Source: an uncultured Acidobacteriota bacterium
Lineage (GTDB): Bacteria; Acidobacteriota; UBA6911
Assembly: GCA_963827655.1 (NCBI GenBank)
Contig: CAWHCF010000029.1
Location: forward strand, 32,001-96,000
Direction of reading: 5' to 3'
DNA length: 64,000 bases
The first letter of the stretch is position 1, and each line of letters starts with the position of its first letter. Under the pieces are notes generated by a model that had not been told where the DNA came from, ran no database searches, and saw only the letters and a list, made by a program, of their open reading frames with translations. The translations under genes were made by a program, and so were the position numbers. This document shows positions 2,061-32,079 of the stretch, one piece after another.

Positions 2061-5000
2061 GTGTTTAGAAGCGCACGTGGAGCCGGTGAATTCTTCCGAA
2101 TAGGGGCCCTGTGTATTGTAGCGTGTGGGTCTCTCACTGGCTTCGCTGCTTTCCAATCCAGCGAGAACGCAAACAAGCTTAGCCTTTCCGTCTACGTTGA
2201 TGGCGCCCCGCCGGGGCTTGGCGCCTCCGATTTTGCGGTCTCTGCCGGCGATTCCACTTTAAAAGTAGATTCCTCAGTTCCACTCGGTAAATCCCGTCCA
2301 ATTCTGATTATTGTCGATCCAGGTTCTTACAGTCGAACCGAACTCCGGCGCCGGCTTTCCTTGTTGAGCGCTGCCTTGGCCGAACCGACGGCGAGCGGCC
2401 AGGAGCCAGTCCCGCTTCGTTTGGGCTTTCCAATCCTGGATGGGGTCCTGACGGACACGATCACGGATCGAAAATTCCTTGGGAAGAGACTGGATTCAGC
2501 CATCGAGAGTTTCCTTCCAGCCGGACCCGAGTCAGAGACGGGGAATCTCGGGCGGTTCCTCGACCTGGTCGTGGAACTGGTGCGCCGGGCTGAAGAAGCC
2601 GGCGGCCCCGTGGATTGCCTGATTCTCGCGCGCGATCGAGGTTTTCCACCAGAGGAGGCGGATTATTTGAATTGGGGATCTGAGCGTCAGATTCTGAACG
2701 CCTCTACCAGAAAAGGAAGCACTTTTTACGGGTATCTGGACGAGTCGGGAATCATTCAAGACGTCTGCGTCGCCAGTGGCGGGCTGGTTTTTCGCGCGAA
2801 TGAGCCTGCGGACGCGGTGGTGCGCAAGATCATGTCGCGGCGGGCCAGAGGATACACGCTCGCGGTTGAGCGACCCGCGAAATCTGATCGCGAGGGACGA
2901 GTTGGGCTGGGCTTAAAGCTCGAAGGACGCACCGGGGCGGTGCAGGGCCCGCGTGCCTTGTGGCAAAACCCTGGCGGCGGTGCCGTTCCGGATCATTACC
3001 GAATGCGTCAGGCGCTTGATTGGATACGCCGCGCAAAGGAAGCTGAAAAGGACGAAAACCTGACCATCGCCCTCCGGTTCATTGAGATGTGCCTTCAGGA
3101 AGATTCCTGGAATCCTCAGGCTTTCTACCTCGGCGGCAAGATCGCGGCTGATAGCGGAGACCTCAACCTGGCTGCCTCCTACCTGACACGTGCGGTAACC
3201 TCCGGGGTTCCCAGTGAGCCTGCTCTCCTGCTCTACGGTCGCGTATTGGATAGACTCGGCCGACCACGCGAGGCTCTGGGAGCCTTTCAGGCCTCGCTGA
3301 GCTCGGGGCTCAGCGCCTCACCTGCGATCAATCTCCAAATGGCCCGGTTGCTGGCATCCAATCGCCAGCATGACGAGGCGCGGCAGGCGTTCGAATCGGT
3401 GCTTGGCAGCGAAGTCGATGATGATGCGACACGGGCGGACTACGGGAAAACCCTCTGGCTTTCCGGTAACAAGACTGCGGCCGCCGAGCAATACCGCCTG
3501 GCGCTTTCGAAAAACCCTGTGAATGCCGCCGCACTCATACATTTTTCCGCAGTCGCGTCGTCTGAGGGGGATGAGAAGGAAGCCTTGGATCTGGGGCTGC
3601 GTGCCCTGAAGGCCCATCCGAAAAACCCCGACACGCACGCGCACATGGGAGAGCTGTATGGCGAACGCGAGAAATGGGGCCCTGCGGTTGATTACTATCG
3701 AGCGGCCCTTGCGCTCGCACCAGGCCGGCGTGACATCACGGCTCGGCTCGTCGATGTACTGGTCCGAGCCGGACGGCCCGGCGAGTCGCTGGATTTATTG
3801 CGCAAGGAGCTGGAGTCTAATCCCTCCGACATCGATGCCTACCGCGCTCTAGCGGGGATTCAGGCAAAGAGCGGCCAACTCACCGAGGCTGTCGCTACCC
3901 TCGAGGGTGGAGCCGCACAGGCGTCGAAGGAAGCTCACGTTCTCTACCGCGATGCAGCGGTGCTGCGGGAGCGGCGCGGAGAGTATGGACAGGCCTTGCT
4001 GGACTATCGTGCCATGCTGAAATCCGTAGGATCCGAAGCTGCTCGCACGGTCGAGAATTCCCTGTCTCAACACCTCGCTTTTCTCTCGCTTTCCGTCAAC
4101 AGTGGAAGTTCCGCGGACAAGGAGCTGGGACCGGGCGCCGAGTTTCTGCCCAAGTTAGAGCCGACGCCGGCGGCTGCTGAAGAAAGTCGTAGTGAAGGAG
4201 AATTGGTCGTTCCGGGAGGCCTCACGCTCCTGGCGAGCACTCTGGGAGTAGAGGTCGGCTGGTTGCGAGAGCCCGAGGCGACCGAGCGTGTTTTTTCGTT
4301 CATGTTGGAGGTGAGCCCCAGTCACAGCGAGCGCCTGCAGGATAACCCGTTGCGCCGCGACCTGATTGCCTACCTTCGCAACTATGATGATCTGATCAAC
4401 CACATGCGCAAGCGCGGGTTATTACCCGCAGAGTTCGATCCCTTCAAGGGACATGAGTTTGTTTTTCCTTTGATAGGACCAGAGCCCGAGCTCAAGAAAA
4501 CCCAGCAGTTTCTCTCATTCTTTGGCGTGGGCCTGAAGGTCAAGCGATCCGGAGACGACTTTTCCGTCAACCTGACGCTCAAGGAGAACCGAGGCGCGAC
4601 GGAACGGCAACAGCTTTTGCGGAACCTGGGGATCAATCTGCTGGATCGAAATCTTCGGGAGCTTCGAGTAAGGCTCCGCAATGACAAGCTCCCGCTCCTT
4701 TACGATGAGCAGACGTGGTCCGGTAAAATCCTTGCCAATGAAAAAGCAAAATCAAAACAGTTGCTTGGGCGTCTGGTTCTGAGCGCCCGCGCAATGAACC
4801 TCTATGTCGCCCTGGCTGGGTGTTCAGACGCCACCCGGGATGGCTTGATTAAATCCACCGGTCCCGGGGAGCTGTTGAGCATGTCGGAGGCATTATCCAC
4901 CTTCGGGCGCCATCTCGATTTCAAAGATGGTCAGCTGGTCGTGCCCGGGCGACGGGAGACCTGGGAGGAGTTCCTGAGTGCGAAGGGGGGTGCGCAGGGA

Positions 5001-7424
5001 AGCATGGTGTCCAGCTTGCTCCGGCGGGATCAAGGAAAGGGACTACTCCTCTACTACTCTCTGTCGGTTGCTCCGAAACCCGTCCAGGATTTTTTCACAG
5101 CCTCGCCCCAGCGACTGAACGACATTTACCAGACCGTGGCGCTGGGCGCGTCGATTCGCCCGGCGTCCAGCGCCTCTGGCGCAGGGAAGCAGGACCCGGG
5201 GCGCATTCTGCGCCAGTTCTCAGCCGACAGCCAGGGACTTCTTCTTTCGTTAGACCAGCGTTTCGGGAAGTTTCTAACGCCTGGTCCTGTCACTGACGAC
5301 GCCTCCAAGGCGGCCGACACCGCAGGCATGCTGCGTGTCAGTCCAAAGCAGTTGCCCAAGCTGCTGGACCAGGGAACCTCTCCCAGTCCAGCTTTGTATC
5401 TTTCGGTCGTGGACACGGTGGAGTTTCTTAAATATGTCCAGTCGGAGAATCCGGCAATTTTAACCGAGGCCTCGATCGCAGCGATCATGCTTGATCCGGC
5501 GCTGACGCCGTCGTTGCTGGATCTGGTTTGGGATCTCAATCCTTCGCCAGAGCTATCGGTCAAATATCTGGCCTATTGCCGTGAGCTCGCGCAATCAGCC
5601 AAATCGACCTGGAACGCCAACAAGAATCGTACCTCTCAGTCGTTATTTTATCTTCTCTCACTCCTGTACCGTGAAGGGACCCTCTCGGCGGAGAACGCGA
5701 GAAAACTTCTTGAAGCGGCTCTCGAACGGCTTTCCTCGCCTGACGAGGGAACTTTTGCCATGGAAGTATCGCGTTTTCTAACCGAGCAATTTCTGCCTGC
5801 AGTAAAGCAGTCTCTCCCCGCGGGCCGTGAAGGCGCAGAGCTGGTTCTGCAAGGTCTCGCCGGCACGAATCAACCTCGGGAGTTCATATTTGAAGGAAAG
5901 CAGCTCCAGCTCGATCTGACCGGGTACAAGCTCCAGCGGATGAAAACCGCGATCCAGCAGCAAGTCTATACGCCGCTCGAGCAGCTCCTTGAGATTTACG
6001 CCGCTTTACTGGAGTTGCAGTCAGGCAAGCCTGCAGCCAGCGCTCTTCAAAGTCTGGAAAAAGGCTTAAGGGAAACCAAGGGCGCGGAGTTTTCAATTCG
6101 ATCCAAAGGGCTGACAGTTCCGGAGAACACGAAGGCTCTGAAACAGTCGGTTGCGCACGTGGAAATCGAGCCGCTGCGACAGAAAGTGGTTCTTCTATCG
6201 CAGGGGAACCAGGGCCAGGGAAGTACGTCGAAGCTGGCCTCGGAAATCGCCGCGGCGCTCCATACCGAGCTGGGGATCACTCTTTTGAGCTACTGCTACG
6301 CTTACCATGGATCTCCTGAAACCGACGCTCTGGCCTTCGATCCGAACTTCGTTCGGAAGCATGACTTCTCCGGCCAGGGTTTGCGTGCGGATACCGCATG
6401 GGGAGCAACTCGCCTGGAGCAGAAAGAAGGAGTGGGTACCTCCTTTGCGGGATCGGTCTCCGGTCTCGGCTTTGAGCTGAGTCGTCTGGAGACTGCCCAG
6501 TCGGTCCAGAGTTTCGGAAGGAGAGAGGGAAGGGGCTTGGTGCCGACGCTCCTCACCGGGATGCGAATAATCCGGCCCTCGCTGCGAAGCGACCGGGCGC
6601 AGGAGTATGTCGCCCTTTCCGTGAGGCTGGGACGCGAGGTTCTGGCTTTGTCGGCTGTGAACGCGAATCTCCGCCTCTGGTGTGAGAACTTTCTCCGGAC
6701 CCTGGTGTCACCGCGGCGGCGGGAGCGCGCGCTGCAGCTGGTACAGGAGGGGAATGCCCGGGCTGCCAGCGCGATTCTTTCGGCGTCCGAACTGTTCTTT
6801 ATCGGAGAAGCTTATCTGACTTCCTCCCAGGGACTGCCGCCTCGCTCGCCTTCGTCTGACATCGCAGGCGTCGAGGCGGGAAACAGCGGTTCGGCCGACG
6901 GGATTTCGGGGAACAGCCCCAATGGAAATGGCTCCGCTCATGGGTTGCCGTCAATCGAATCCTCGCTCGACGTCGATTGCCCGGTACTGGTCCGCATCAA
7001 AGAGATCATTCCAGCCCAAGGGAGCAGCGAGGCTCGCCAGTTTCGTCGTGAAGTCGAACAGTATGGCATCCTGCTGCGACGGCGCTTGGGTTTAAGCCAG
7101 CTCTCGTTCTCGCTGGCAGACTCGTACGAGCAGCTGGAAAGGAACTCCAGAGAGGAGCTCCTTTACGAGCGCATTTGCGATCTGAAGATCAAGATTGCCG
7201 AACTCAGCTACTCGCTCGGCCTTCCCGCGTACCTGGGTGAAGTCCTGGGAGAGCTGGCAGTCCGGGATATCCTTCCTCAATCGGCTGCGGTTCGCACGAA
7301 TAGCTGGAAGCTCGCCCTGGAGCAGATTGGGCGACTCGAGCCGGAGAATGCGCGCAATTGGGTTGAAGAACTACTGAACCGGGGAATCCTCGCCATACTA
7401 ACAAAGACTGCTGCTGAAAAATAA
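2061..7424 (+). CDS. Large putative secreted protein: degenerate VWA-like module, TPR array and ~1000-aa uncharacterised C-terminal region
   Basis: 1787-aa ORF with a hydrophobic N-terminal signal-like stretch. The N-terminus resembles acidobacterial VWA modules (GLGASDFAVS...ILIIVDPGS...GYTL). TPR-like helix repeats span about residues 315-660. The start codon is uncertain. Confidence 0.8.
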   Translation: MFRSARGAGEFFRIGALCIVACGSLTGFAAFQSSENANKLSLSVYVDGAPPGLGASDFAVSAGDSTLKVDSSVPLGKSRPILIIVDPGSYSRTELRRRLSLLSAALAEPTASGQEPVPLRLGFPILDGVLTDTITDRKFLGKRLDSAIESFLPAGPESETGNLGRFLDLVVELVRRAEEAGGPVDCLILARDRGFPPEEADYLNWGSERQILNASTRKGSTFYGYLDESGIIQDVCVASGGLVFRANEPADAVVRKIMSRRARGYTLAVERPAKSDREGRVGLGLKLEGRTGAVQGPRALWQNPGGGAVPDHYRMRQALDWIRRAKEAEKDENLTIALRFIEMCLQEDSWNPQAFYLGGKIAADSGDLNLAASYLTRAVTSGVPSEPALLLYGRVLDRLGRPREALGAFQASLSSGLSASPAINLQMARLLASNRQHDEARQAFESVLGSEVDDDATRADYGKTLWLSGNKTAAAEQYRLALSKNPVNAAALIHFSAVASSEGDEKEALDLGLRALKAHPKNPDTHAHMGELYGEREKWGPAVDYYRAALALAPGRRDITARLVDVLVRAGRPGESLDLLRKELESNPSDIDAYRALAGIQAKSGQLTEAVATLEGGAAQASKEAHVLYRDAAVLRERRGEYGQALLDYRAMLKSVGSEAARTVENSLSQHLAFLSLSVNSGSSADKELGPGAEFLPKLEPTPAAAEESRSEGELVVPGGLTLLASTLGVEVGWLREPEATERVFSFMLEVSPSHSERLQDNPLRRDLIAYLRNYDDLINHMRKRGLLPAEFDPFKGHEFVFPLIGPEPELKKTQQFLSFFGVGLKVKRSGDDFSVNLTLKENRGATERQQLLRNLGINLLDRNLRELRVRLRNDKLPLLYDEQTWSGKILANEKAKSKQLLGRLVLSARAMNLYVALAGCSDATRDGLIKSTGPGELLSMSEALSTFGRHLDFKDGQLVVPGRRETWEEFLSAKGGAQGSMVSSLLRRDQGKGLLLYYSLSVAPKPVQDFFTASPQRLNDIYQTVALGASIRPASSASGAGKQDPGRILRQFSADSQGLLLSLDQRFGKFLTPGPVTDDASKAADTAGMLRVSPKQLPKLLDQGTSPSPALYLSVVDTVEFLKYVQSENPAILTEASIAAIMLDPALTPSLLDLVWDLNPSPELSVKYLAYCRELAQSAKSTWNANKNRTSQSLFYLLSLLYREGTLSAENARKLLEAALERLSSPDEGTFAMEVSRFLTEQFLPAVKQSLPAGREGAELVLQGLAGTNQPREFIFEGKQLQLDLTGYKLQRMKTAIQQQVYTPLEQLLEIYAALLELQSGKPAASALQSLEKGLRETKGAEFSIRSKGLTVPENTKALKQSVAHVEIEPLRQKVVLLSQGNQGQGSTSKLASEIAAALHTELGITLLSYCYAYHGSPETDALAFDPNFVRKHDFSGQGLRADTAWGATRLEQKEGVGTSFAGSVSGLGFELSRLETAQSVQSFGRREGRGLVPTLLTGMRIIRPSLRSDRAQEYVALSVRLGREVLALSAVNANLRLWCENFLRTLVSPRRRERALQLVQEGNARAASAILSASELFFIGEAYLTSSQGLPPRSPSSDIAGVEAGNSGSADGISGNSPNGNGSAHGLPSIESSLDVDCPVLVRIKEIIPAQGSSEARQFRREVEQYGILLRRRLGLSQLSFSLADSYEQLERNSREELLYERICDLKIKIAELSYSLGLPAYLGEVLGELAVRDILPQSAAVRTNSWKLALEQIGRLEPENARNWVEELLNRGILAILTKTAAEK

Positions 7425-7433
7425 GGAGCTGTC

Positions 7434-10388
7434 ATGACCTGTCGCAATGCTCTTATCCTTTTCTTGATGGCCCTCACTTGTTTGGCGAATCCGGCTGTTT
7501 CCCAGGATCCAAAACCCGAAGCGGAACCTCAGGATCTCACCTATCGCGTACAGTCGCAGCTCGTCCAGATTTACTTGACAGTAACCGAAGGAACCCAGCG
7601 GATAAGCGACCTGAAGCAGTCAGATTTTTCGGTTTCGGAGGACGGTGTTGCAAAAGACATAGATCGCCTCGACAGCGGGACGGTTCCGCTTCAGGTAGCG
7701 CTCCTGCTCGATACCAGCGAAAGCATGCGCGAAGCCCTGCCCAGCACGCAAGAAGCCGCAGCCTACTTCGTCGAGTCGTTGAGCGTCCGCGATCGCGTTA
7801 CGTTGGTTCCGTTCAATTCCGACATTCGGAGCATTCATCAACTCTCCGACGATCGCGCGCCGATCCTGCACGCGATCCGGAGTACTCAAGCGGTTGGCGG
7901 AACGAAACTTTATGACGCGCTCCTTTTTGCCATGAAGCATCTGAGCGGCAAGGAGGGGCGAAAGGCGATCGTGGCATTCTCGGACGGAGAGGACACGGCG
8001 CGAAGCTCATCGCTCAATATCGTGATGGCTGCTGCCGCGCGCTATGGTTTCCCGATCTATACCATCGGGGCCGGCGCGGGTCTACGCCGGGATTCTCTCA
8101 AACGGGTGATGCGCCAGCTCGCCGACATCAACAGCGGCAAGATGTATGTGGTTGAAGACCCGCGTGACTTGCGCGAAGCATTTACCGAGGTCTCCTCCGA
8201 GCTGAGCTCCGCCTACGTGCTGAATTACTACACACAGGTTCCCTTCGATGGGCGCTGGCACGACGTCAAAATCTCGCTTTCGAACCCGAAATATCGTGTG
8301 CATTGTCGCAGGGGTTTTTATGCCAAGGCCGGCGGCTCAAGCGCTCTGTTGACGGATCTGGGAGAAAATGACCGAAAACGCACCTTCAACGTGCGCGATT
8401 ATGCGGATGCTCCCGAGGGAGCCGCCAAGGTTGCAGCCACCGAGGTTCTCAAGACCCCGGTTTCGATGCGCGAGCTTGAGGCGAGTCCGCTCCGTAGTTC
8501 AGCTCCGGCCGCCGGACAGAGTGGGACTCAATCAAAGACTCCGGTCTTCAAGGTAGAGTCCCGCTTCGTGGAGGTTCCCGTCATCGTCGAAAGTCCGACT
8601 GGACGGGAATTGCCATTGCTCACGGAGAAAGACTTCCGCGTCTACGAAGACGATTCCCTGAGGGAGATTGCCTTCTTCAGCCGGGACATCGCCACGCAAA
8701 ACCTGTCGCAGCTGAGAGACAAGGCGATGAAAAAAGTGGGCGCGCCGGAAAGCTCTGTGACTTTGTCCAGCGACGGCGACAACGTACTCCTGGGTCGCTA
8801 CTACCTGGTGCTGGATGACATGATGTCGGATGTCTCCTCCTTTCTCCAGACCAAGACAGCCGCCGAGAAAATTGTCCGGGAGTTTCATAGTCCTCTGCGC
8901 CCGGTTTCCCTCCATTTCACGAGTCAGGCTCAAGCGGATATCCTGGCTCAAGACAGCCTGGAGATCATGCTCCAGAAGATTCGCAAGTCGCTTCCGCGCG
9001 CGAGCCGAGAGCTGACCACGAGCGACAATATCATGAGCGTCTATGAGGCATACCTGATCGAACGCGGGGACACGCAGGCGACCCAGTTGGCGGAGCTGCG
9101 CTATGCCTCCAGCCTTTTGCTGCGATACAAGAATGACCTTGGGGAAGTGGAGGGACAGGAAGTAGCCAGCCCGGAGATGGTCATCAATTCGGTTCAGAAC
9201 ACCAGCCGCCAGCTGGTCGCGTCAAATTTCGCGCAGCTTACACGCGCCCTCGATGGTCTGCGCGCCGTGGTGGCGGCAGCCACATCCGATCCGGGGACTC
9301 ATCCCAAAACCGCCATCTTCCTCTCCTCCGGTTTCTCTCTAGGCCGCACGAGCGCGCGGGGCGACATGGCCGGGATGCTCGACAACATTATTGCCGCAGC
9401 GAAGCGAAGCACTGTGAAGGTCAATGCCATTGACGCGGCCGGTCTTACGGTCGATGAATCTCTGGGGATCGGGGCCAATGGCGCCTTCCTGGTGCGCAAT
9501 CCTCACCTGAGTTCAATCCTGGCCGAACATGCCCGAAGCTGGCACAGCGATAAGCAGTCCCCGCTGTTTCAGATGGCCTCCGAAACAGGAGGCAAATTCG
9601 TTCATTCGAACAACGACCTGGCTTCCGCCGCTTCCACGGTGATGCGGTCTTCCGGGCAGCTCTACTACCTCGGGTACCTTTCCAAGCAGCCTGCCGACGG
9701 TCGTTTCCACCGAATTCGCGTCACCAGCTCATTGAGCACGGCAAAGATCCACGCGCGCAAAGGGTATATTGCCGGGCGACAAAACGCGCCCGAGACGCTG
9801 GCTGCTACCAGTCCCGAGGGAGAGGACTGGGAAGGACTTCTGGTTCGAGCCAATGAGGCTCGCAAGAACGGGGACATGAAGGAACTCGCTGCCAGCCTGG
9901 AGGCCCTGGTGCGCCGATTTCCGAACGAGTCGAACTTCTGGTTCAACCTGGGCGCGGCTCATTTGAAGCTCGGGAATCCCCTGCGCGCGGTCGAGGTGTT
10001 GCAAAAGGCGTTTGCGCTTTCGCCGGATGACAAAACCATTGCGCTGACTCTTTCGCAGGCATTCATGGCTTCAGGTTCTCCTGACGCGGCTAGCGAGACC
10101 CTGGAGATCATGGCTCGCCGCCATCCGCGCGATGTGGACCTGCTTATGCTGCTTGGGCGAGTCTACGAATCGGATTCCCGGGTCGAACAGGCCTACGAAA
10201 CATACCGCAGAATCCTTGATCTTTCGCTGGCGCCTCCCCTCGACCTCTATGTTCTTTTGACACGCACGTCTATGCGCTTGGGACGGCGCGTGGAAGCGGG
10301 GCTGTTTATTGATGATTTCCTGAGACGGGGTGGATCGGCCGGGCAGATCGAAGCCTGGCGCCAGGTCCTCGGTCCGGCTTCGCAATAG
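7434..10388 (+). CDS. Secreted tandem VWA-domain protein (acidobacterial VWFA-related) with C-terminal TPRs
   Basis: Signal peptide. VWA1 has an intact MIDAS (LLDTSESM, TKLYDA, FSDGED) plus Y..Y...DGRWHDVKI. VWA2 is degenerate (LDDMMSD, FLSSGF, SETGG, YYLGY...DGRFHRIRV). TPRs at the C-terminus. AAGGAG SD. Confidence 0.88.
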   Translation: MTCRNALILFLMALTCLANPAVSQDPKPEAEPQDLTYRVQSQLVQIYLTVTEGTQRISDLKQSDFSVSEDGVAKDIDRLDSGTVPLQVALLLDTSESMREALPSTQEAAAYFVESLSVRDRVTLVPFNSDIRSIHQLSDDRAPILHAIRSTQAVGGTKLYDALLFAMKHLSGKEGRKAIVAFSDGEDTARSSSLNIVMAAAARYGFPIYTIGAGAGLRRDSLKRVMRQLADINSGKMYVVEDPRDLREAFTEVSSELSSAYVLNYYTQVPFDGRWHDVKISLSNPKYRVHCRRGFYAKAGGSSALLTDLGENDRKRTFNVRDYADAPEGAAKVAATEVLKTPVSMRELEASPLRSSAPAAGQSGTQSKTPVFKVESRFVEVPVIVESPTGRELPLLTEKDFRVYEDDSLREIAFFSRDIATQNLSQLRDKAMKKVGAPESSVTLSSDGDNVLLGRYYLVLDDMMSDVSSFLQTKTAAEKIVREFHSPLRPVSLHFTSQAQADILAQDSLEIMLQKIRKSLPRASRELTTSDNIMSVYEAYLIERGDTQATQLAELRYASSLLLRYKNDLGEVEGQEVASPEMVINSVQNTSRQLVASNFAQLTRALDGLRAVVAAATSDPGTHPKTAIFLSSGFSLGRTSARGDMAGMLDNIIAAAKRSTVKVNAIDAAGLTVDESLGIGANGAFLVRNPHLSSILAEHARSWHSDKQSPLFQMASETGGKFVHSNNDLASAASTVMRSSGQLYYLGYLSKQPADGRFHRIRVTSSLSTAKIHARKGYIAGRQNAPETLAATSPEGEDWEGLLVRANEARKNGDMKELAASLEALVRRFPNESNFWFNLGAAHLKLGNPLRAVEVLQKAFALSPDDKTIALTLSQAFMASGSPDAASETLEIMARRHPRDVDLLMLLGRVYESDSRVEQAYETYRRILDLSLAPPLDLYVLLTRTSMRLGRRVEAGLFIDDFLRRGGSAGQIEAWRQVLGPASQ

Positions 10389-10417
10389 GACAGGGCGGGC
10401 CGTCCCAGAGAAGGAAC

Positions 10418-10446
10418 TTGACACAATCCATGATACACGGTACAAA
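10418..10446 (+). promoter_or_regulatory. Putative sigma70 promoter of the leader-cysG operon
   Basis: Consensus TTGACA (10418-10423), 17-nt spacer, TACAAA (10441-10446). Confidence 0.6.
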
Positions 10447-10468
10447 ACTTGAGTCAGGTTATAAGGAT

Positions 10469-10543
10469 ATGACGAGATTCTGCCACATTCTTACTTGTTG
10501 TTGTAGCGGGCGCCATGCGTCGGTGGCAGATGGCGTAACTTAA
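10469..10543 (+). CDS. Cys-rich leader peptide MTRFCHILTCCCSGRHASVADGVT (24 aa), putative attenuator peptide
   Basis: ATG..TAA ORF with TGC plus tandem TGT-TGT-TGT. It lies between the promoter and a terminator upstream of the siroheme synthase genes. It is below the ORF-track size cutoff and its SD is weak. Confidence 0.75.
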   Translation: MTRFCHILTCCCSGRHASVADGVT

Positions 10544-10567
10544 TCCCTGGGAAATGCAGCACTCTTG

Positions 10568-10608
10568 AGCCCGCCACCGGCAATTGCTGGTGGCGGGCTT
10601 TTTATTTT
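10568..10608 (+). terminator. Intrinsic terminator (attenuator 3:4 hairpin)
   Basis: 14-bp stem AGCCCGCCACCGGC / GCTGGTGGCGGGCT (one G-U) with loop AATT, followed by TTTTATTTT immediately before the cysG ATG. Confidence 0.88.
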
Positions 10609-11244
10609 ATGAAGCTTTATCCGGTTCATCTCAAGCTCGAAGGCAAGCAGGCGCTCGTGGTTGGCGGCGGGGAAGTGGCTTCTGTCAAAGCCCGCGCACT
10701 ACTCGAAGGGGGCGCGGTCGTGAAAATCGTTGCGCCGCATTGTTCGGACGAGATGCGTACCCTGATCGAGACTTTTCACCTTTCCTGCGAGCTGCGGCCG
10801 TTCGTGGCCGCGGATTTGAACGATGTCTGGATTGTGGTAGCGGCGACCGGCGATCCGGAATTGCATGAACTGATTTTTCGAGAGGCGACCGCGAGAAACT
10901 TGCTGCTGTGCGTCGCGGATGATCCCGCGCACTCGAACTTCATTGTGCCGGCCGTGCTTCGAAGAGACGAGCTGGTGGTAACGGTTTCGACGTCGGGAAA
11001 GGCTCCGGCGCTGGCAGCAAGGATCCGGGACTACCTGGGAGAGATTCTGGGCGAACAGTACGGGCAGGTTCTGAAACGGCTGGGCACTACACGCGAGCGA
11101 CTTAAAGCGCAATACCCGGATTTTGCGCGCCGCCGGGAAGCGTGGTATCGACTTCTGGATACAGAGGTCATGCCGCAACTTCGGCGCGGAGAACTGCCCA
11201 GCCTGGAGGCGAGAGGGCAGGACTCCAGGGAGAGCGCAGGATGA
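10609..11244 (+). CDS. cysG: Precorrin-2 dehydrogenase/sirohydrochlorin ferrochelatase (CysG N-terminal part, SirC/Met8-like)
   Basis: YPVHL...LVVGGGEVA..K, AATGD, VADDP, VSTSGKAPALA motifs. Confidence 0.92.
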   Translation: MKLYPVHLKLEGKQALVVGGGEVASVKARALLEGGAVVKIVAPHCSDEMRTLIETFHLSCELRPFVAADLNDVWIVVAATGDPELHELIFREATARNLLLCVADDPAHSNFIVPAVLRRDELVVTVSTSGKAPALAARIRDYLGEILGEQYGQVLKRLGTTRERLKAQYPDFARRREAWYRLLDTEVMPQLRRGELPSLEARGQDSRESAG

Positions 11245-11999
11245 ACGGGAAGGTATTTATCGTCGGCGCGGGACCTGGTGACCCAGGGCTGATCACAATG
11301 CGAGGCTTGCAGTGCATCCGCGCGGCCGACGTGCTCGTGTATGACCGGCTGGTCCATCCCTCGTTGTTGAAGGAAGCTCCCGCTCATGCCGAGCATGTCT
11401 ATGTCGGGAAGGAGGCGGACCACCATACCCTGGATCAAGAGAGCATCAATGAGCTTCTGGCGATGCACGCAATGCTGGGACGGAACGTGGTTCGGCTCAA
11501 GGGGGGAGATCCCTTCGTTTTCGGCAGGGGGGGAGAGGAAGCAGTCTTTCTAGCCGAGAGAGGAATATGCTTCGAAGTAGTTCCCGGCATCAGTAGCGCC
11601 ATCGCAGTACCCGCTTTTGCGGGCATCCCGATCACGCAACGGGGCGTCTCGAGCAGCTTTGCCGTGGTTACGGGTCATCTGTGCGGGAAAGAACTTCCGG
11701 TTGATTATGCTGCCATGCTTCGGAGCGTCGGTACCCTCGTGATTCTGATGGGGGTTCGCAGTTTTCCTACGATTGCCAGGCAGCTCCTGGACGGCGCGAT
11801 CGACAAATCAACTCCGGTCGCATTCATCGAGCAGGGAACACACGAATCGCAGCGTACCCTGGTGACGACACTCGAGAACGCGATCCGGGACAGTCGCGAG
11901 GTGCAGCCGCCTGCTGTCATAGTCATCGGCCACGTCGTATCGTTGCGTGAACAGATCGAATGGTTTCACGAAGCAGCGCGCGCTTCCACTTGCCGCTGA
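11241..11999 (+). CDS. cobA: Uroporphyrinogen-III C-methyltransferase
   Basis: VGAGPGDPGLIT, VYDRLV, RLKGGDPFVFGRGGEE, PGISS motifs. The ATGA overlap with the upstream stop puts the start at 11241. Confidence 0.95.
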   Translation: MNGKVFIVGAGPGDPGLITMRGLQCIRAADVLVYDRLVHPSLLKEAPAHAEHVYVGKEADHHTLDQESINELLAMHAMLGRNVVRLKGGDPFVFGRGGEEAVFLAERGICFEVVPGISSAIAVPAFAGIPITQRGVSSSFAVVTGHLCGKELPVDYAAMLRSVGTLVILMGVRSFPTIARQLLDGAIDKSTPVAFIEQGTHESQRTLVTTLENAIRDSREVQPPAVIVIGHVVSLREQIEWFHEAARASTCR

Positions 12000-12004
12000 G
12001 ACCC

Positions 12005-12040
12005 CAATCGTCAATCGTCAATCGTCAATCGTAAATCGTC
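12005..12040. repeat. Heptamer (CAATCGT)n array between convergent genes
   Basis: CAATCGT x4 followed by AAATCGTC, the same unit and variant as at 967-1000. Confidence 0.9.
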
Positions 12041-12439
12041 TCACCCCATCGTGTTGGTGCGCTCCGGAATGATCTTGTAGAGGACCCGCACCTCATCGGG
12101 CTGGCGAAAGGGGTATTTGTCCACGTTCAGGTACTTCTTAGCCATCTTGTTGATGTGGGCGTCAGCCCCTTGCTCGGTGATCTCGGCGACCTTGCCGCGC
12201 ACGCCGAGGTAGCGGTAAGGATTCTGCGGGTCCATGATCGAAAGAGCGACCCTGGGATTCTTCCTCATGTTGCGGTCCTTTACTCTTCCCTTGGCTGAAT
12301 TGACCAGGATGTGTTTGCCGTCGAAGTCAATCCAGACCGGCGTTACTTGTGGACTCCCGTCGGGCATGACGGTCGCAAGACTGGCGAAGACAGGCTGCTC
12401 AAAGAGTTTCTCGAAACCTTCTGGAATTCCATTCGACAT
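12041..12439 (-). CDS. PPOX-class F420-dependent oxidoreductase (split beta-barrel FDOR)
   Basis: LATVMPDGSPQVTPVW, GRVKDRNMRKNPRVAL, DPQNPYRYL and AKKY motifs. It is the last gene of the cof operon. Confidence 0.9.
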   Translation of the reverse strand: MSNGIPEGFEKLFEQPVFASLATVMPDGSPQVTPVWIDFDGKHILVNSAKGRVKDRNMRKNPRVALSIMDPQNPYRYLGVRGKVAEITEQGADAHINKMAKKYLNVDKYPFRQPDEVRVLYKIIPERTNTMG

Positions 12440-12451
12440 AGTTCCTCCTCT

Positions 12452-13255
12452 TTATCGAAAGAGATCGTCTTCCTGGGAACGGATCAGTTCCCGGCCGGAA
12501 CCTGATCCGGGTTGATACTGAAATCCTTCGATTACCACGACCGGGATGCCGAGCGTTTTTCCCATGACAAGTTCCGCAGCCGCGGCCAGCTCGTCAGCCA
12601 CGGCAAGCACCGTAGCGCGCAAAGGCCGCCCGTAGAAATCGACCTTGCCCCTGTAGTCGACCAGAGGGGCAAGTCCTGCTACGCCCAGCGCCACGTTCGT
12701 TAAACCCTGTCGCCAGGGTCTTCCGAAGGTATCGGATATTATCACGGCCAGCTCGACCTTCAGCGCTTCTTCCAGGTCCGAACGCAGTTCCTGTGCCGAT
12801 CGGTCTGGATCTTCCGGCAGCAGGACCACGGTTCCCTTCGGGGCATTCGAGGCATCGACCCCGGCATTGGCGCATACAAATCCGTGGTGAGTTTCAGAGA
12901 TGAGCACGCCCCGATCCATGCGGACTACGCGCTTCGTCTCTCGAAGAACGGCCTCCACCATCCTCGGGTCCTTATCGTGCCGGCTGGCCCATTCCTGCGC
13001 CTGGACCGAGGGCCTTACCGTTTCGAGGTCGACGAGCCGCCCCTCCGCTTTACTCACGACCTTCTGAGCCACGACCAGGATACTGCCGGGCCGGACCCAT
13101 GCATCGGAGGAGTCAACCTGGCGGCGGGGCGCTTCCGTATCGGTCGTTCCGGAGCGTTGACGGAGGGCCGCGAGAATTGTTTCGCACAGGTTATCTCCTG
13201 GGTTGATCTCGGGCATTCCTTCGAGACCCCAGATTCGCACCTCGCTAGGTGGCAT
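12452..13255 (-). CDS. cofE: Coenzyme F420-0:L-glutamate ligase (single-domain CofE)
   Basis: AQKVVSKAEGR, GFVCANAGVDASN, LLPEDPDRSA, ISDTFGRPWR, ADELA, DDLFR. Likely start MPPSEV at 13255. Confidence 0.93.
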   Translation of the reverse strand: MPPSEVRIWGLEGMPEINPGDNLCETILAALRQRSGTTDTEAPRRQVDSSDAWVRPGSILVVAQKVVSKAEGRLVDLETVRPSVQAQEWASRHDKDPRMVEAVLRETKRVVRMDRGVLISETHHGFVCANAGVDASNAPKGTVVLLPEDPDRSAQELRSDLEEALKVELAVIISDTFGRPWRQGLTNVALGVAGLAPLVDYRGKVDFYGRPLRATVLAVADELAAAAELVMGKTLGIPVVVIEGFQYQPGSGSGRELIRSQEDDLFR

Positions 13256-13910
13256 GCTCCATGAGCCTTTCTTCAATCCTGAGATCGCGCAGGAGGCGAT
13301 AACTTTCGGTTTGAGACGCATCTTTCATGAACCAGAGAATGTCGGAAGGGGTATCAAGGTCGAGGGCGATGCGGTTGTTCTCCAGGATCGTGAATGAGGC
13401 CTGGACGCGCATGGCTTCCTGCGTGTGGAGGACCAGGCTATTGTGGCCGAAGCGTGAAGCGAAAAGATTTGGAGGCATGCGGATCAGGGCGTTCGTTCCC
13501 AAGAAGTCGCGTGAAGGCACAAGGATGGAAGAGCCGTTTTCGAGGGTTTGGTTCATGAGCGCATGGATGTCTTCCGGCTGCACCAGCGGAATGTCGGCCG
13601 GCAGCCTGAGCACGGCCTCCGTGCCTTGCATTGCGAGTAGATTCGACGCGCGATCGACCGACGCGCTCTCTGATATTTGCTCGCTTTCCCAGAATATCCG
13701 CCATCCCAATTCGCGAGCCGCATTCGCGGCTCTGGTCGAGCCGGTCACAACGGCTATCTGCGATGCCGGCGAAATCGAGCGCAGCGCGCGCGCCACATCC
13801 TGAAACATAGCCCAGGCGAGCCTGGAACGTTCTTCCGAGGCTAACGCCGGAGCCATCCTCAGCTTGGCCTGCTCCGGATCTTTCACCGGTATCAGAATCA
13901 CGGGCGGCAT
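13245..13910 (-). CDS. cofC: 2-phospho-L-lactate/PEP guanylyltransferase
   Basis: LIPVK...AKLRM, PADIP, GTNAL, FGHNS...H, LDLDTPSD. The real start is MPPVIL at 13910 (the ORF-track start overlaps cofD). Confidence 0.9.
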   Translation of the reverse strand: MPPVILIPVKDPEQAKLRMAPALASEERSRLAWAMFQDVARALRSISPASQIAVVTGSTRAANAARELGWRIFWESEQISESASVDRASNLLAMQGTEAVLRLPADIPLVQPEDIHALMNQTLENGSSILVPSRDFLGTNALIRMPPNLFASRFGHNSLVLHTQEAMRVQASFTILENNRIALDLDTPSDILWFMKDASQTESYRLLRDLRIEERLMEHAT

Positions 13911-13983
13911 GCGACTCACTACCTCGGCCGGGGTGGCGGCGAGTACTTGAAACCAACGCCGCCGCCAGGACGAACAGACGCGA

Positions 13984-14907
13984 TCACACCATCTCGACCA
14001 CCTTCCGGGCCAGATCAATCTTGGATTGGTGATCATCCATGAGGGTGTCAGCCAGGCGTACCTGCAGCCCCAGGCTGGCAACACGAGGTAACAGGCCGGC
14101 ATCCCGCTCGTCCAGCACGAAAAGATCGACGAAATCACTATACATGCGGGCGACCGAAAGGGCCGAGACGTCTTGCCCCATTTCGCGCAGCATGCGCGCC
14201 GTGGGGCCTTTGATAGCCCGTCCGGCAATGATCGGGGTAATGGCCACGATTCGGGCATCAGTCTCATGAAGCGCTTCCCGAATCCCGGGCACGGCAAGGA
14301 TTGGACCGATGCTAATGTAAGGGTTACTGGGACAGATAAAGACCACCTCGGCCGCGCCTATGGCCTCGAGCACACCAGGGGCCGGACTGGCATCTTCGAT
14401 CGCCCGGAACAGGAAATCCTTTACGCGCGGCTCGCATCTTCTCCGCACGAAGTAATCCTGAAAAGCCAGTGTCCCCTCGTCGGTTTGAATCTCCGTGGGA
14501 ACATAGCTGTTGGTCATGGGCAGGATCACTGAACGAATGCCGCTCTTGCGAGAAATGTCACCGGTGACTTGGCCGAGGGTGTTTCCCTCGCGGATCTTTT
14601 GCGAACGATAAATGTGGGTGGCGAGATCGCGGTCTCCAAGTTTGAACCAGGTGTCGCACCCCAGCGTTTGCAAGCGCTCGAGGGCATGGAAGCTGTCGCC
14701 GAGTATACCCCATCCAGTCTCAGGATTAGCCAGCCCGGCCAGAGTGTACGTGACCGTGTCCAAATCCGGACAGATGTAAAGACCCATCCACTGAAAGTCG
14801 TCGCCCGTGTTGACGATGATGGTGACCTGCTCCGGCGGAAGAACCGCCATCAACCCGGCGAGGAATTTCGAAGCCCCGATGCCTCCGGCTAGTGCGACGG
14901 CCTTCAC
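13984..14907 (-). CDS. cofD: 2-phospho-L-lactate transferase
   Basis: [62 protein letters not shown]. Confidence 0.95.
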
Positions 14908-30792: not shown

Positions 30793-32079
30793 ATGCGACT
30801 ATCACGACTTCTCTTAGTGCGTCAGAATTTTCCGGATCGCGCCATACGCGACATTCCGGCCGAAGTACACGGGCAGCTTTCCCGATCGCCATTCGCCGCC
30901 GGGCTGAAGCCCGGATCCCGGGTTGCCATCGGAGTCGGGAGTCGGGGCATTGTCAATATCGCCGTGATCGCAAGGTCGGCCGTAGAGTACTGGAAGTCGG
31001 CGGGTATGCGGCCCTTCATCTTTCCGGCGATGGGCAGCCACGGCGCCGCCACTGCGGAAGGTCAGGCCGACGTGCTGGCGCATTACGGGATCGTCGAGGG
31101 CACGATGGGCTGTCCGATTGTCAGTTCGCTCGACGTCGTTCCGCTGGGGAAAACTCCGGAAGGCATCGACACCTTCATGGATCGCAGCGCTTTCGAAAGC
31201 GATGGCGTGATGCTCCTGGCCCGGGTGAAATGGCACACGGATTTTGCGGGCAAGATCGAAAGCGGCCTGCACAAGATGATGGCGATCGGCCTGGGGAAAT
31301 TCGCCGGGGCTCAACGCTACCACACCTTTGCCCACAGGCTCGGACTGGAGCCCGTGATTCGGAGCATCGGCCGGCAGGTGCTTCGCTCCGGAAAGATTCT
31401 CGGGGGACTGGCCATCCTCGAAGATGCCCATCACAATACGGCGAAACTTGCCGCCGTCCCGGTCGACGACATGGAACGGGGCGAAGAGGAACTGCTGGCG
31501 CTGGTCAAATCCTGGATGGGCCGCATCCCAACCGATCTCGACATCCTGATTCTGGACGAAATCGGCAAGAACATCAGCGGAGCGGGAATGGATACCAAGG
31601 TGGTCAACCGCAGCGTCTATGGCGCCTATAACCCCTGGCCCGACACGCCGCGCATCGAGCGCATCTTTGTGCGGGATCTGAGCGAGCTGACCTATAACAA
31701 TGCGACGGGCCTGGGAATGGCCGATGTGGTTACAGATCGCCTGGTCGATCGCGTCGACTGGAAGCCCACCCACATCAATGCGCTGACGGCTTCCACGCCG
31801 GCGGCAATCCGCACTCCGATCCATTTCCCGAGCGACCGTGAGTGCCTGGAACGTATCGCGCCGACAGTGGGGAAGGTGGATATGGGTGAGGTCACAATCG
31901 GCTGGATTCGCAATACCATGGAACTCAGCCTGCTGGCGCTCTCCGAAAACCTGCGGCCTCAGATCGAAAACAATCCGCAACTAGAAATCCTGGGCGATCC
32001 CCGGGAAATCGAATTCGACGCTTCCGGTAACCTGGTAACCATGCTGGCTCAGCTCGGAGAGATGGCTCACGTGAGCTAG
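30793..32079 (+). CDS. LarA/lactate-racemase-domain superfamily protein (DUF2088-like)
   Basis: VAIGVGSRGI, PAMGSHG, HTDF.G..ESGL.KM.AIGLGK, GKNISGAGMD. Substrate unknown. Confidence 0.75.
   Translation: MRLSRLLLVRQNFPDRAIRDIPAEVHGQLSRSPFAAGLKPGSRVAIGVGSRGIVNIAVIARSAVEYWKSAGMRPFIFPAMGSHGAATAEGQADVLAHYGIVEGTMGCPIVSSLDVVPLGKTPEGIDTFMDRSAFESDGVMLLARVKWHTDFAGKIESGLHKMMAIGLGKFAGAQRYHTFAHRLGLEPVIRSIGRQVLRSGKILGGLAILEDAHHNTAKLAAVPVDDMERGEEELLALVKSWMGRIPTDLDILILDEIGKNISGAGMDTKVVNRSVYGAYNPWPDTPRIERIFVRDLSELTYNNATGLGMADVVTDRLVDRVDWKPTHINALTASTPAAIRTPIHFPSDRECLERIAPTVGKVDMGEVTIGWIRNTMELSLLALSENLRPQIENNPQLEILGDPREIEFDASGNLVTMLAQLGEMAHVS

Follow-up and report, generated by a model that had tools for sequence, protein, structure and literature searches.

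A cysteine-codon leader upstream of the siroheme genes sirC-cobA in an uncultured Acidobacteriota bacterium is very probably a transcription attenuator of the classical type

How a bacterium might adjust the synthesis of siroheme to its supply of cysteine is the question raised by a locus in a 64,000-nucleotide stretch from an uncultured Acidobacteriota bacterium (GenBank assembly GCA_963827655.1, contig CAWHCF010000029.1, positions 32,001 to 96,000 of the forward strand; the whole stretch is hereafter called the window). Assimilatory sulfite reductase uses siroheme as its cofactor, and in this locus two genes resembling sirC and cobA are preceded by an unannotated short open reading frame (sORF) with a run of three Cys codons, which is followed by a hairpin and a T-tract ending at the sirC start codon. 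We consider it very likely that this leader is a ribosome-mediated transcription attenuator of the trp/his type, which would sense charged tRNA-Cys. The elements involved, in window coordinates, are the following.

10418-10446, plus strand: promoter-like sequence read from the DNA, TTGACA (10418-10423), a 17-nt spacer and TACAAA (10441-10446).
10469-10543, plus strand: leader ORF of 24 codons plus TAA (ATG at 10469, TAA at 10541-10543), encoding the peptide MTRFCHILTCCCSGRHASVADGVT; recognized by sequence and conservation.
10496-10504, plus strand: putative regulatory codons TGT TGT TGT, read from the sequence; an additional Cys codon, TGC, lies at 10481-10483.
10479-10486, plus strand: segment 1, TCTGCCAC, the 5' strand of a predicted 1:2 anti-antiterminator of 8 bp with GTGGCAGA at 10523-10530.
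10519-10530, plus strand: segment 2, GTCGGTGGCAGA, predicted partner of either segment 1 or the terminator 5' arm, with an invariant GGTGGC core; based on helix tests.
10573-10581, plus strand: segment 3, GCCACCGGC, the part of the terminator 5' arm that the predicted antiterminator uses; based on sequence and helix tests.
10567-10608, plus strand: predicted intrinsic terminator, with a stem-loop at 10567-10600 and a T-tract at 10599-10608 abutting the sirC ATG; based on a terminator scan and folding.
10609-11244, plus strand: sirC-like gene for a precorrin-2 dehydrogenase / sirohydrochlorin ferrochelatase of 211 amino acids (Pfam PF13241, PF10414 and PF14824; NCBIfam TIGR01470).
11241-11999, plus strand: cobA-like gene for a uroporphyrinogen-III C-methyltransferase (PF00590; TIGR01469, 290 bits vs a cut-off of 185).

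An earlier interpretation made from the DNA letters alone (the sequence-only reading) had named the promoter, the leader ORF, its four Cys codons and the pairing segments, and every coordinate it gave was found to be correct on re-reading. Cys takes up 4 of the 24 leader codons, compared with 0.89% of codons across the 2861 long ORFs of the genome; TGT, the minor Cys codon in these long ORFs (27%), accounts for 16 of 34 Cys codons in the leaders, and the genome contains a single tRNA-Cys gene, with anticodon GCA. A shifted reading of the TGT run as Leu codons (TTG TTG TTG TAG) was rejected, as this frame lacks a start codon and is not preserved in relatives. The promoter-like sequence was absent from the list returned by a consensus promoter scan because TACAAA does not have the final T that the tool requires, and the pattern TTG[AC]CA-17-TAnAAA is found at eight of eight homologous loci. 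Judged from hexamer spacing alone, the 22 nt between the -10 hexamer and the leader ATG of the window do not correspond to a leaderless geometry; in the clade of the window a stretch of about 15 nt would precede the ORF, while most homologues look leaderless.

The hairpin is the sole strong site that the terminator scan detected within 9900-12500. Its core, GCCCGCCACCGGC-AATT-GCTGGTGGCGGGC (10569-10598), forms 15 pairs, 11 of them G-C, closed by a loop of 4, and is followed by TTTTTATTTT (10599-10608) and by the sirC ATG at 10609, in agreement with the terminator and abutting U-tract described in the sequence-only reading. The leader of 164 nt folds at -62.7 kcal/mol (z = -3.4), a stability that none of 200 shuffles attained, and the 1:2 helix is present in both its minimum free energy and its centroid fold. 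Folded separately, as the sequence-only reading had proposed, the three alternative helices gave -18.8 (1:2), -20.8 (2:3) and -32.4 (3:4) kcal/mol. The 2:3 antiterminator would join TCGGTGGC (10520-10527) to GCCACCGG (10573-10580); segment 2 of the window makes 9 contiguous pairs with 10573-10581, which 1.2% of shuffles equal. The Cys run begins 10 nt past segment 1 and ends 15 nt ahead of segment 2, and the stop codon lies 11 nt beyond the end of segment 2. An Rfam scan of 9800-11200 (E up to 10) returned only noise matches, all on the hairpin, the best of which had E = 0.56-5.5 and 12.7-19.8 bits vs gathering scores of 40-170.

These elements suggest the following course of events. The transcript would start a few bases past TACAAA and the 24-codon ORF would be translated at once. 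With ample cysteine, the ribosome would reach the TAA at 10541-10543, where it would overlap the 3' part of segment 2, and once it had left, segment 1 would pair again with segment 2; under these conditions, or with no translation at all, segment 3 would be free, the 3:4 hairpin and its U-tract would form, and RNA polymerase would halt at about 10600-10608, just short of the sirC ATG. With scarce Cys-tRNA, the ribosome would stall on TGT TGT TGT (10496-10504), covering or sterically blocking segment 1, and the free segment 2 (10519-10530) could capture the emerging terminator 5' arm (10573-10581), so that the terminator could not form and sirC-cobA would be transcribed. The additional siroheme would then serve sulfite reductase.

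Conservation of the leader was assessed with a comparison set made up of the window, three genomes (G007, G014 and G009) and four metagenome contigs (L045, L046, L048 and L049), which together represent four genera or clades. The element precedes sirC in all seven close relatives with readable upstream DNA. Alignment of these upstream regions, a check that the sequence-only reading had put forward, found the Cys-run sORF and the stems conserved at all eight loci: ORF lengths are 24-27 codons, 4-5 of which specify Cys, two or more neighbouring Cys codons fall in the same alignment columns, insertions and deletions in the ORF are multiples of three (3, 9 and 99 nt), and the stop codon occupies a single column (TAA in seven loci, TGA in one). 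The distances from stop to stem (25-31 nt) and from stem to ATG (10-11 nt) vary little, the U-tract is retained in 8/8 loci, and the GGUGGC/GCCACC antiterminator core is invariant in all of them. In L048, G014 and G009 the ORF starts 6-7 nt past the -10 hexamer, a leaderless geometry as judged by hexamer spacing alone, while G007 and L049 have an in-frame ATG at the leaderless position, from which a longer ORF of 57 codons starts; the short version in L049 begins with GTG.

The distribution of the leader follows that of close SirC homologues. A DNA search among 40 relatives detected it in three (G007, G014 and G009), and a covariance model (R1) recovered 4 of 51 family genomes, including the organism's own, adding none to those already found. 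SirC homologues occur in 30 of the 51 family genomes, and close ones (58-66% identity) just in G007, G002, G014 and G009, three of which keep the leader. The exception is G002, where sirC directly follows a gene whose end (locus L013) resembles the C-terminal extension of Sir described below; sirC in this genome appears to belong to the sir operon, as judged from gene order, and therefore a leader would not be expected at that position. Ten metagenome loci were collected, and the four with SirC of at least 63% identity and readable upstream DNA all carry the leader; L047 and L052 (upstream region missing) and L050, L051, L053 and L054 (at most 41% identity) were set aside. No Cys sORF was seen upstream of sirC in L051, and this contig and L044, both of Anaerolineae type, have in common a motif of about 60 nt (…ACCTGCACG.AATGACATCTGGCACTCCC…TTTTCACAGATAAT…) located about 130-60 nt upstream of their sirC homologues, likewise without a Cys sORF.

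The genes sir and sirC lie side by side in divergent orientation in G009 and G014, each with its own leader, which indicates that the sirC terminator does not belong to an upstream gene. Between the divergent promoters of these two genomes lies a palindrome, ATCTAATCC-GA-GGATTAGAT, perfect in G014, imperfect in G009 and absent from the window; by its sequence and position it could be an operator through which a protein regulator acts on both promoters.

The alternative helices were evaluated on the alignment of the eight sequences. The combination 1:2 + 3:4 has 89.3% of its cells paired, vs 38-53% when the partners are slid by 1-3 columns, and 2:3 has 90.6%, vs 27-62% when slid; 1:2 alone has 87.5% of cells paired and one compensatory pair. 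Folding of the nascent transcript cut ahead of the terminator 3' arm, with the ribosome footprint masked, gave the 1:2 helix in the absence of a ribosome, and when the first Cys codon of the run was placed in the A site the 2:3 helix was best in six of the eight (the window, L045, L046, L049, G007 and G014). The stalling geometry of the sequence-only reading, in which stalling masks segment 1 and leaves segment 2 free, whereas a ribosome that has reached the stop would cover segment 2, fits these coordinates, and its attenuator reading gains from the presence of the elements and of both alternative pairings in all eight loci, as well as from a second Cys leader before sulfite reductase. On its expectation of covarying stems, one compensatory pair was seen in 1:2 + 3:4 and none in 2:3, the core of which is invariant, and the shuffles gave mixed results. 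As duplex-energy shuffles discriminate poorly when G-rich leaders are set against a C-rich arm, the longest contiguous helix between the region after the Cys codons and the terminator 5' arm was used as the statistic instead. This helix has 9 bp in the clade of the window (shuffle fraction 0.004-0.012), 8 bp in G014 and G009 (0.008-0.022) and 6 bp in L048, L049 and G007 (0.24-0.35). Over the 15 leaders of two families, the sirC type and the sir type, ten have a longest helix of 8-10 bp with a shuffle fraction of at most 0.03, and segment 2 starts 19-26 nt ahead of the stop in 12 and 35-36 nt ahead of it in three of the four sir-type leaders.

The second Cys leader lies in the organism's own genome, outside the window (G000:C25, about 31640-31900, minus strand; L060:1746-1942:-), where the sORF MELAVTGKNPIVDLKTQAACRCICTAFIQRNRSDGP precedes a sulfite reductase-cysH operon. 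This second leader also has a segment, CGGAACCGG, complementary to the arm CCGGTTCCG of a strong terminator, and looks unrelated to the sirC leader while following the same design. Because sir-cysH carries its own predicted Cys-codon attenuator, the two operons would be expected to respond together; this leader and the family matches of SirC and CobA, which indicate siroheme synthesis, are also in line with the biological sense that the sequence-only reading had seen in control by cysteine. Homologues of the sir leader stand before sir in G007, G009 and G014, with helices of 8-9 bp and shuffle fractions of 0.014-0.106; they were found by inspection of the loci, as matches to a dispersed heptamer repeat overwhelmed the DNA search with the sir leader. 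The region ahead of cysD/cysN (G000:C20) showed no Cys sORF. A scan of both strands of the genome (8.18 Mb) for sORFs with at least three Cys in at most five codons and a strong hairpin plus T-tract within 160 nt gave five matches. Two of these (C9 and C26) were left out of further examination; of the three others, two precede sulfur-assimilation genes (the present locus and the sulfite reductase locus), and the third, C46, was rejected as a leader, given that its sORF lies inside a permease gene.

The sir locus has further features of its own. Tandem copies of the heptamer CAATCGT, which belong to the dispersed repeat, lie downstream of the sir-leader terminator and ahead of the sir ATG (G000:C25, about 31520-31650, minus strand); this portion of the query had 26 matches within the own genome, with many more spread over 23 of 50 family genomes, and a mirrored repeat of AATGAC type flanks a hairpin about 600 nt farther upstream. 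The Sir protein (P0001, G000:C25) ends in an extension of about 130 amino acids (residues ~580-713; …AWEWLAQGEAYFYHHEYEH…VDPFTSEQAFWEFENIFVLSGE…) that had no family match in the scans run, and in G002 the gene immediately ahead of sirC ends in this type of extension.

Beyond the family, a covariance model (R2) applied to 137 genomes from the class detected three more homologues of the leader, all weaker, in two other families. In G028 the leader MKHTLCCMPCCCPPQAAGRGVAVF precedes a NIR_SIR gene; in G026 the leader MIDRIGNWKGCACCRRLQRGLPVAVCPS precedes a gene whose N-terminus looks sulfite-reductase-like (by reading of the sequence, not by a family scan), and MIAYRSECVCCCRIQKGASGGGLSIMT precedes a gene of the Sulf_transp family (YeeE/YedE type). 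The terminator arm in G026 is GCCGCC and segment 2 pairs with it over 10 bp (shuffle fraction 0/500 and 0.006). In G028 the 5' arm, the 3' arm and segment 2 are altered jointly, from GCCACC/GGTGGC/GGTGGC to GCTACC/GGTAGC/GGTAGG in this order, in a distant homologue for which MAFFT misplaces the segment by two columns; a joint change at three places is what a functional 2:3 helix would predict.

Across the phylum, 44 of 251 sampled Acidobacteriota have a Sir homologue at E <=1e-40, and 40 upstream regions were taken, G102, G156, G277 and second matches within one genome being left out. A sORF with at least three Cys in at most five codons was present upstream of Sir in 7/40 regions in sense and in 1/40 in antisense, vs 102 of 4000 random windows of the own genome, although six of the seven positives come from one family (f40) and are not independent. 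An eighth such sORF, in G112, was noticed by eye. Outside f40 and f45, none of 32 Sir-upstream regions had a Cys sORF under the pattern and the start-codon guess used. In the f40 and f45 leaders a terminator or antiterminator went undetected by simple rules in four of eight, and the helix test was not significant in the other four. The sORF 'ICCFCQSTNS' of G060 and G049 was rejected as a leader, since it runs antisense to a conserved gene. Locus L017 (G055), which comes from a different genus within the organism's family, has a sORF, MSSLRRSTFQTANRPGCCCRRPTAWLAAWTCAAS, about 336 to 234 nt upstream of sirC-cobA-cysH-like genes; it looks leaderless (TTGACA-17-TAGAAT-7 nt-ATG), and no canonical terminator was seen there.

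The genes that the leader would control form a compact unit. The SirC-like protein is homologous to the N-terminal part of CysG (TIGR01470, cysG_Nterm, 163 bits vs a cut-off of 62), and the sirC stop codon TGA overlaps the cobA start codon as ATGA (11241-11244), an arrangement which suggests translational coupling of both siroheme genes. As the genes past cobA converge on the other strand, the regulated unit is taken to be a two-gene siroheme operon. These convergent genes (12041-14907, minus strand) comprise a PNPOx-family gene and genes of F420 biosynthesis (cofE-, cofC- and cofD-like). Upstream, on the plus strand (2061-10388), are genes for a TPR protein of 1787 amino acids and a VWA+TPR protein of 984 amino acids. 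As for expression, four soil or rhizosphere metatranscriptome runs yielded near-identical contigs of 151-263 nt over 10410-10560 and over sirC/cobA, at a depth of about 2-4; one of these RNA-library contigs has its first base at 10410, ahead of the predicted start site, possibly owing to DNA carry-over or read-through.

Several observations weigh against the attenuator reading. The signals for transcription and translation are imperfect: the -10 hexamer TACAAA does not have the conserved final T, the leader ATG is preceded solely by AGGA 1 nt or AGG 10 nt upstream, and the sirC start has no Shine-Dalgarno sequence. The counts over eight loci come from related sequences and thus are not independent, and covariation among them is scant, since 1:2 + 3:4 shows just one compensatory pair and 110-123 of 500 column shuffles reach its scores, while 2:3 shows none, because its core never varies among eight close sequences. 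Two members of the set, L048 and G009, gave no clean antiterminator in the masked folding. In the duplex-energy test of 2:3, the fraction of dinucleotide shuffles that pair equally well ranges from 0.018 to 0.49 and is at least 0.12 in four of the eight, and L048, L049 and G007 do not reach significance in the longest-helix test. The metatranscriptome contigs are too short and too shallow to show starts, ends or levels.

Other explanations of the same elements were weighed. Control could act on translation as in mycobacteria, with a stalled ribosome remodelling the leader so that sirC is translated, the hairpin affecting mainly initiation or mRNA stability, and termination being secondary or absent. 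The Cys-leader mechanism demonstrated in M. smegmatis (Ms5788A) is indeed translational according to the part of the report available (10.1101/834739), most homologues have a leaderless geometry as in mycobacteria, the hairpin ends 10-11 nt ahead of the sirC ATG in 8/8 loci and sirC is devoid of a Shine-Dalgarno sequence. However, the hairpin has the form of a canonical intrinsic terminator, with 15 pairs and then TTTTTATTTT, its U-tract is kept in 8/8 loci, and it covers neither the start codon nor a ribosome-binding sequence, which makes this explanation improbable. Some translational contribution alongside termination may nonetheless exist, given how close the hairpin ends to an ATG that has no Shine-Dalgarno sequence. 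A functional Cys-rich micropeptide, for instance a metal- or redox-active one with its own terminator, sirC being expressed by constitutive leak-through or from another promoter, would account for an ORF kept in frame and for a C-terminal half (RHAxVAxGV) conserved in 6/8 peptides. Nevertheless, these conserved codons coincide with segment 2, and the conservation there is at the nucleotide level, third positions included; peptides of the second leader family and of other Acidobacteriota have only the Cys clusters in common with it; all such leaders precede sulfur-assimilation genes, and the 10-11 nt between terminator and ATG provide no space for a separate sirC promoter. We regard such a peptide as quite improbable.

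The run of UGU/UGC could also belong to the binding site of an RNA switch that works without translation, such as a riboswitch or a leader bound by a protein, the ORF being incidental. A structured leader (z = -3.4) conserved partly at the nucleotide level is in line with this, but the Rfam matches did not exceed noise (best E = 0.56), the ORF keeps its start, frame and stop despite indels of 3, 9 and 99 nt and a change from TAA to TGA, relatives do not have the alternative frames of the TGT run open, and the unrelated leaders have only in-frame Cys codons in common. We therefore hold a switch of this kind to be very improbable. What remains is chance, by which the hairpin would be an insulator or the terminator of the upstream VWA/TPR gene and the sORF would be noise: that gene (7434-10388) lies on the same strand without a terminator of its own, and the contig starting at 10410 begins before the predicted start site. 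The unit of leader, terminator and sirC persists, however, next to a different or divergently transcribed upstream neighbour (G009 and G014), all its parts are kept in 8/8 loci, and so few matches were obtained from the whole genome (five in 8.18 Mb, of which the three examined comprise two before sulfur-assimilation genes and one in a permease gene). The conservation data contradict chance, and we give it hardly any credence. A transcription attenuator read by the ribosome is the explanation that we retain.

The principle of this mechanism is textbook knowledge, and the element is very probably a Cys-sensing attenuator of a well-known kind. In the leader-peptide attenuators of enterobacteria (trpL, hisL, leuL, thrL and pheL), a sORF rich in codons for the end product is combined with mutually exclusive 1:2, 2:3 and 3:4 helices. 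The sirC leader resembles them in its promoter-proximal Cys-rich sORF, in comparable distances and in a 3:4 helix that is the strongest of the three and has the form of an intrinsic terminator. Unlike them, it would sense cysteine ahead of genes that make the cofactor siroheme and not the amino acid itself; in addition, five of the eight homologues have an ORF start 6-7 nt past the -10 hexamer and are presumably leaderless, the host belongs to the Acidobacteriota, and there is no sequence relationship.

Cys leaders have been reported from other lineages, and the comparisons below hold for the accessible parts of the reports cited. In mycobacteria, polycysteine leaderless sORFs act as attenuators (Canestrari et al. 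2020, 10.1101/834739 = Mol Microbiol 114:93). As described there, such unannotated sORFs with consecutive Cys codons stand at the 5' end of cysteine-related operons, and several loci per genome would respond jointly as a 'ribulon', similarly to what is proposed here, and most acidobacterial homologues likewise start leaderless. The mycobacterial case studied in that report unmasks the Shine-Dalgarno sequence of the next gene and has no intrinsic terminator, whereas the sirC leader has a strong terminator, a U-tract and a predicted antiterminator, no Shine-Dalgarno sequence is involved, and the ORF of the window is not leaderless. In Rhodobacterales, the motif uORFC-8-2 upstream of cysS was predicted to be a ribosome-mediated attenuator (Brewer et al. 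2021, PMC8632094). As far as the available text describes it, uORFC-8-2 is similar to the sirC leader in having tandem Cys codons in an upstream ORF (uORF) and a 3' U-run that would suit an intrinsic terminator, and it is likewise a prediction; it differs in preceding a cysteinyl-tRNA synthetase gene, in occurring in Alphaproteobacteria and in having two Cys codons, at positions 14-15. No match related to uORFC-8-2 came out of the Rfam scan covering the sirC leader region. Candidate Cys leader peptides were also proposed before cys operons and cbs in Actinobacteria (Seliverstov et al. 2005, PMC1262725). These too are short ORFs with a run of Cys codons, but in the accessible portion of that report they are presented without terminators or antiterminators and Rho dependence is suggested, whereas the sirC leader has sequence elements for all the parts of a classical attenuator.

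The sequence-only reading had considered an attenuator of this kind undescribed in this lineage. That view stands for the element itself, as the literature searched, which extended to papers outside subscription-only access, contained no Cys leader for Acidobacteriota or for siroheme genes; it has to be narrowed for the general design, given that a Cys uORF with a terminator had been predicted before cysS in Rhodobacterales, at least according to the available part of PMC8632094. In a survey of 2010, almost none of the attenuators predicted in Acidobacteriota had an assigned function, as stated in the portion of that paper at hand (PMC2965389).

A wider proposal, to which we assign about equal weight for and against, is that sulfur assimilation in Acidobacteriota may be run as a ribosome-read 'Cys ribulon' of attenuators with intrinsic terminators. 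Unrelated and mostly leaderless families of poly-Cys leaders would precede the genes for sulfite reductase and for a sulfur transporter, and the siroheme branch would have a leader of its own; one module (GGUGGC / GCCCGCCACC) would have moved between target operons across families, and cofactor synthesis would be gated by the charging of tRNA-Cys and not by a CysB-type regulator.

What deserves attention in this genome is that the cofactor branch would be gated apart from the enzyme operon, with at least two such leaders present, and the locus draws attention to small unannotated ORFs that annotation pipelines miss. If the attenuator reading is true, the sirC-cobA leader would provide a clear and testable example of a classical attenuator in Acidobacteriota, which rank among the most abundant phyla in soil and whose regulation is almost uncharted, and would add cysteine to the amino acids sensed by terminator-type leader peptides. 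It would also represent an amino-acid sensor that gates a branch of tetrapyrrole cofactor synthesis in parallel with the enzyme that uses siroheme. The value of the finding would thus lie in its breadth and in the two-operon arrangement, rather than in a new mechanism.

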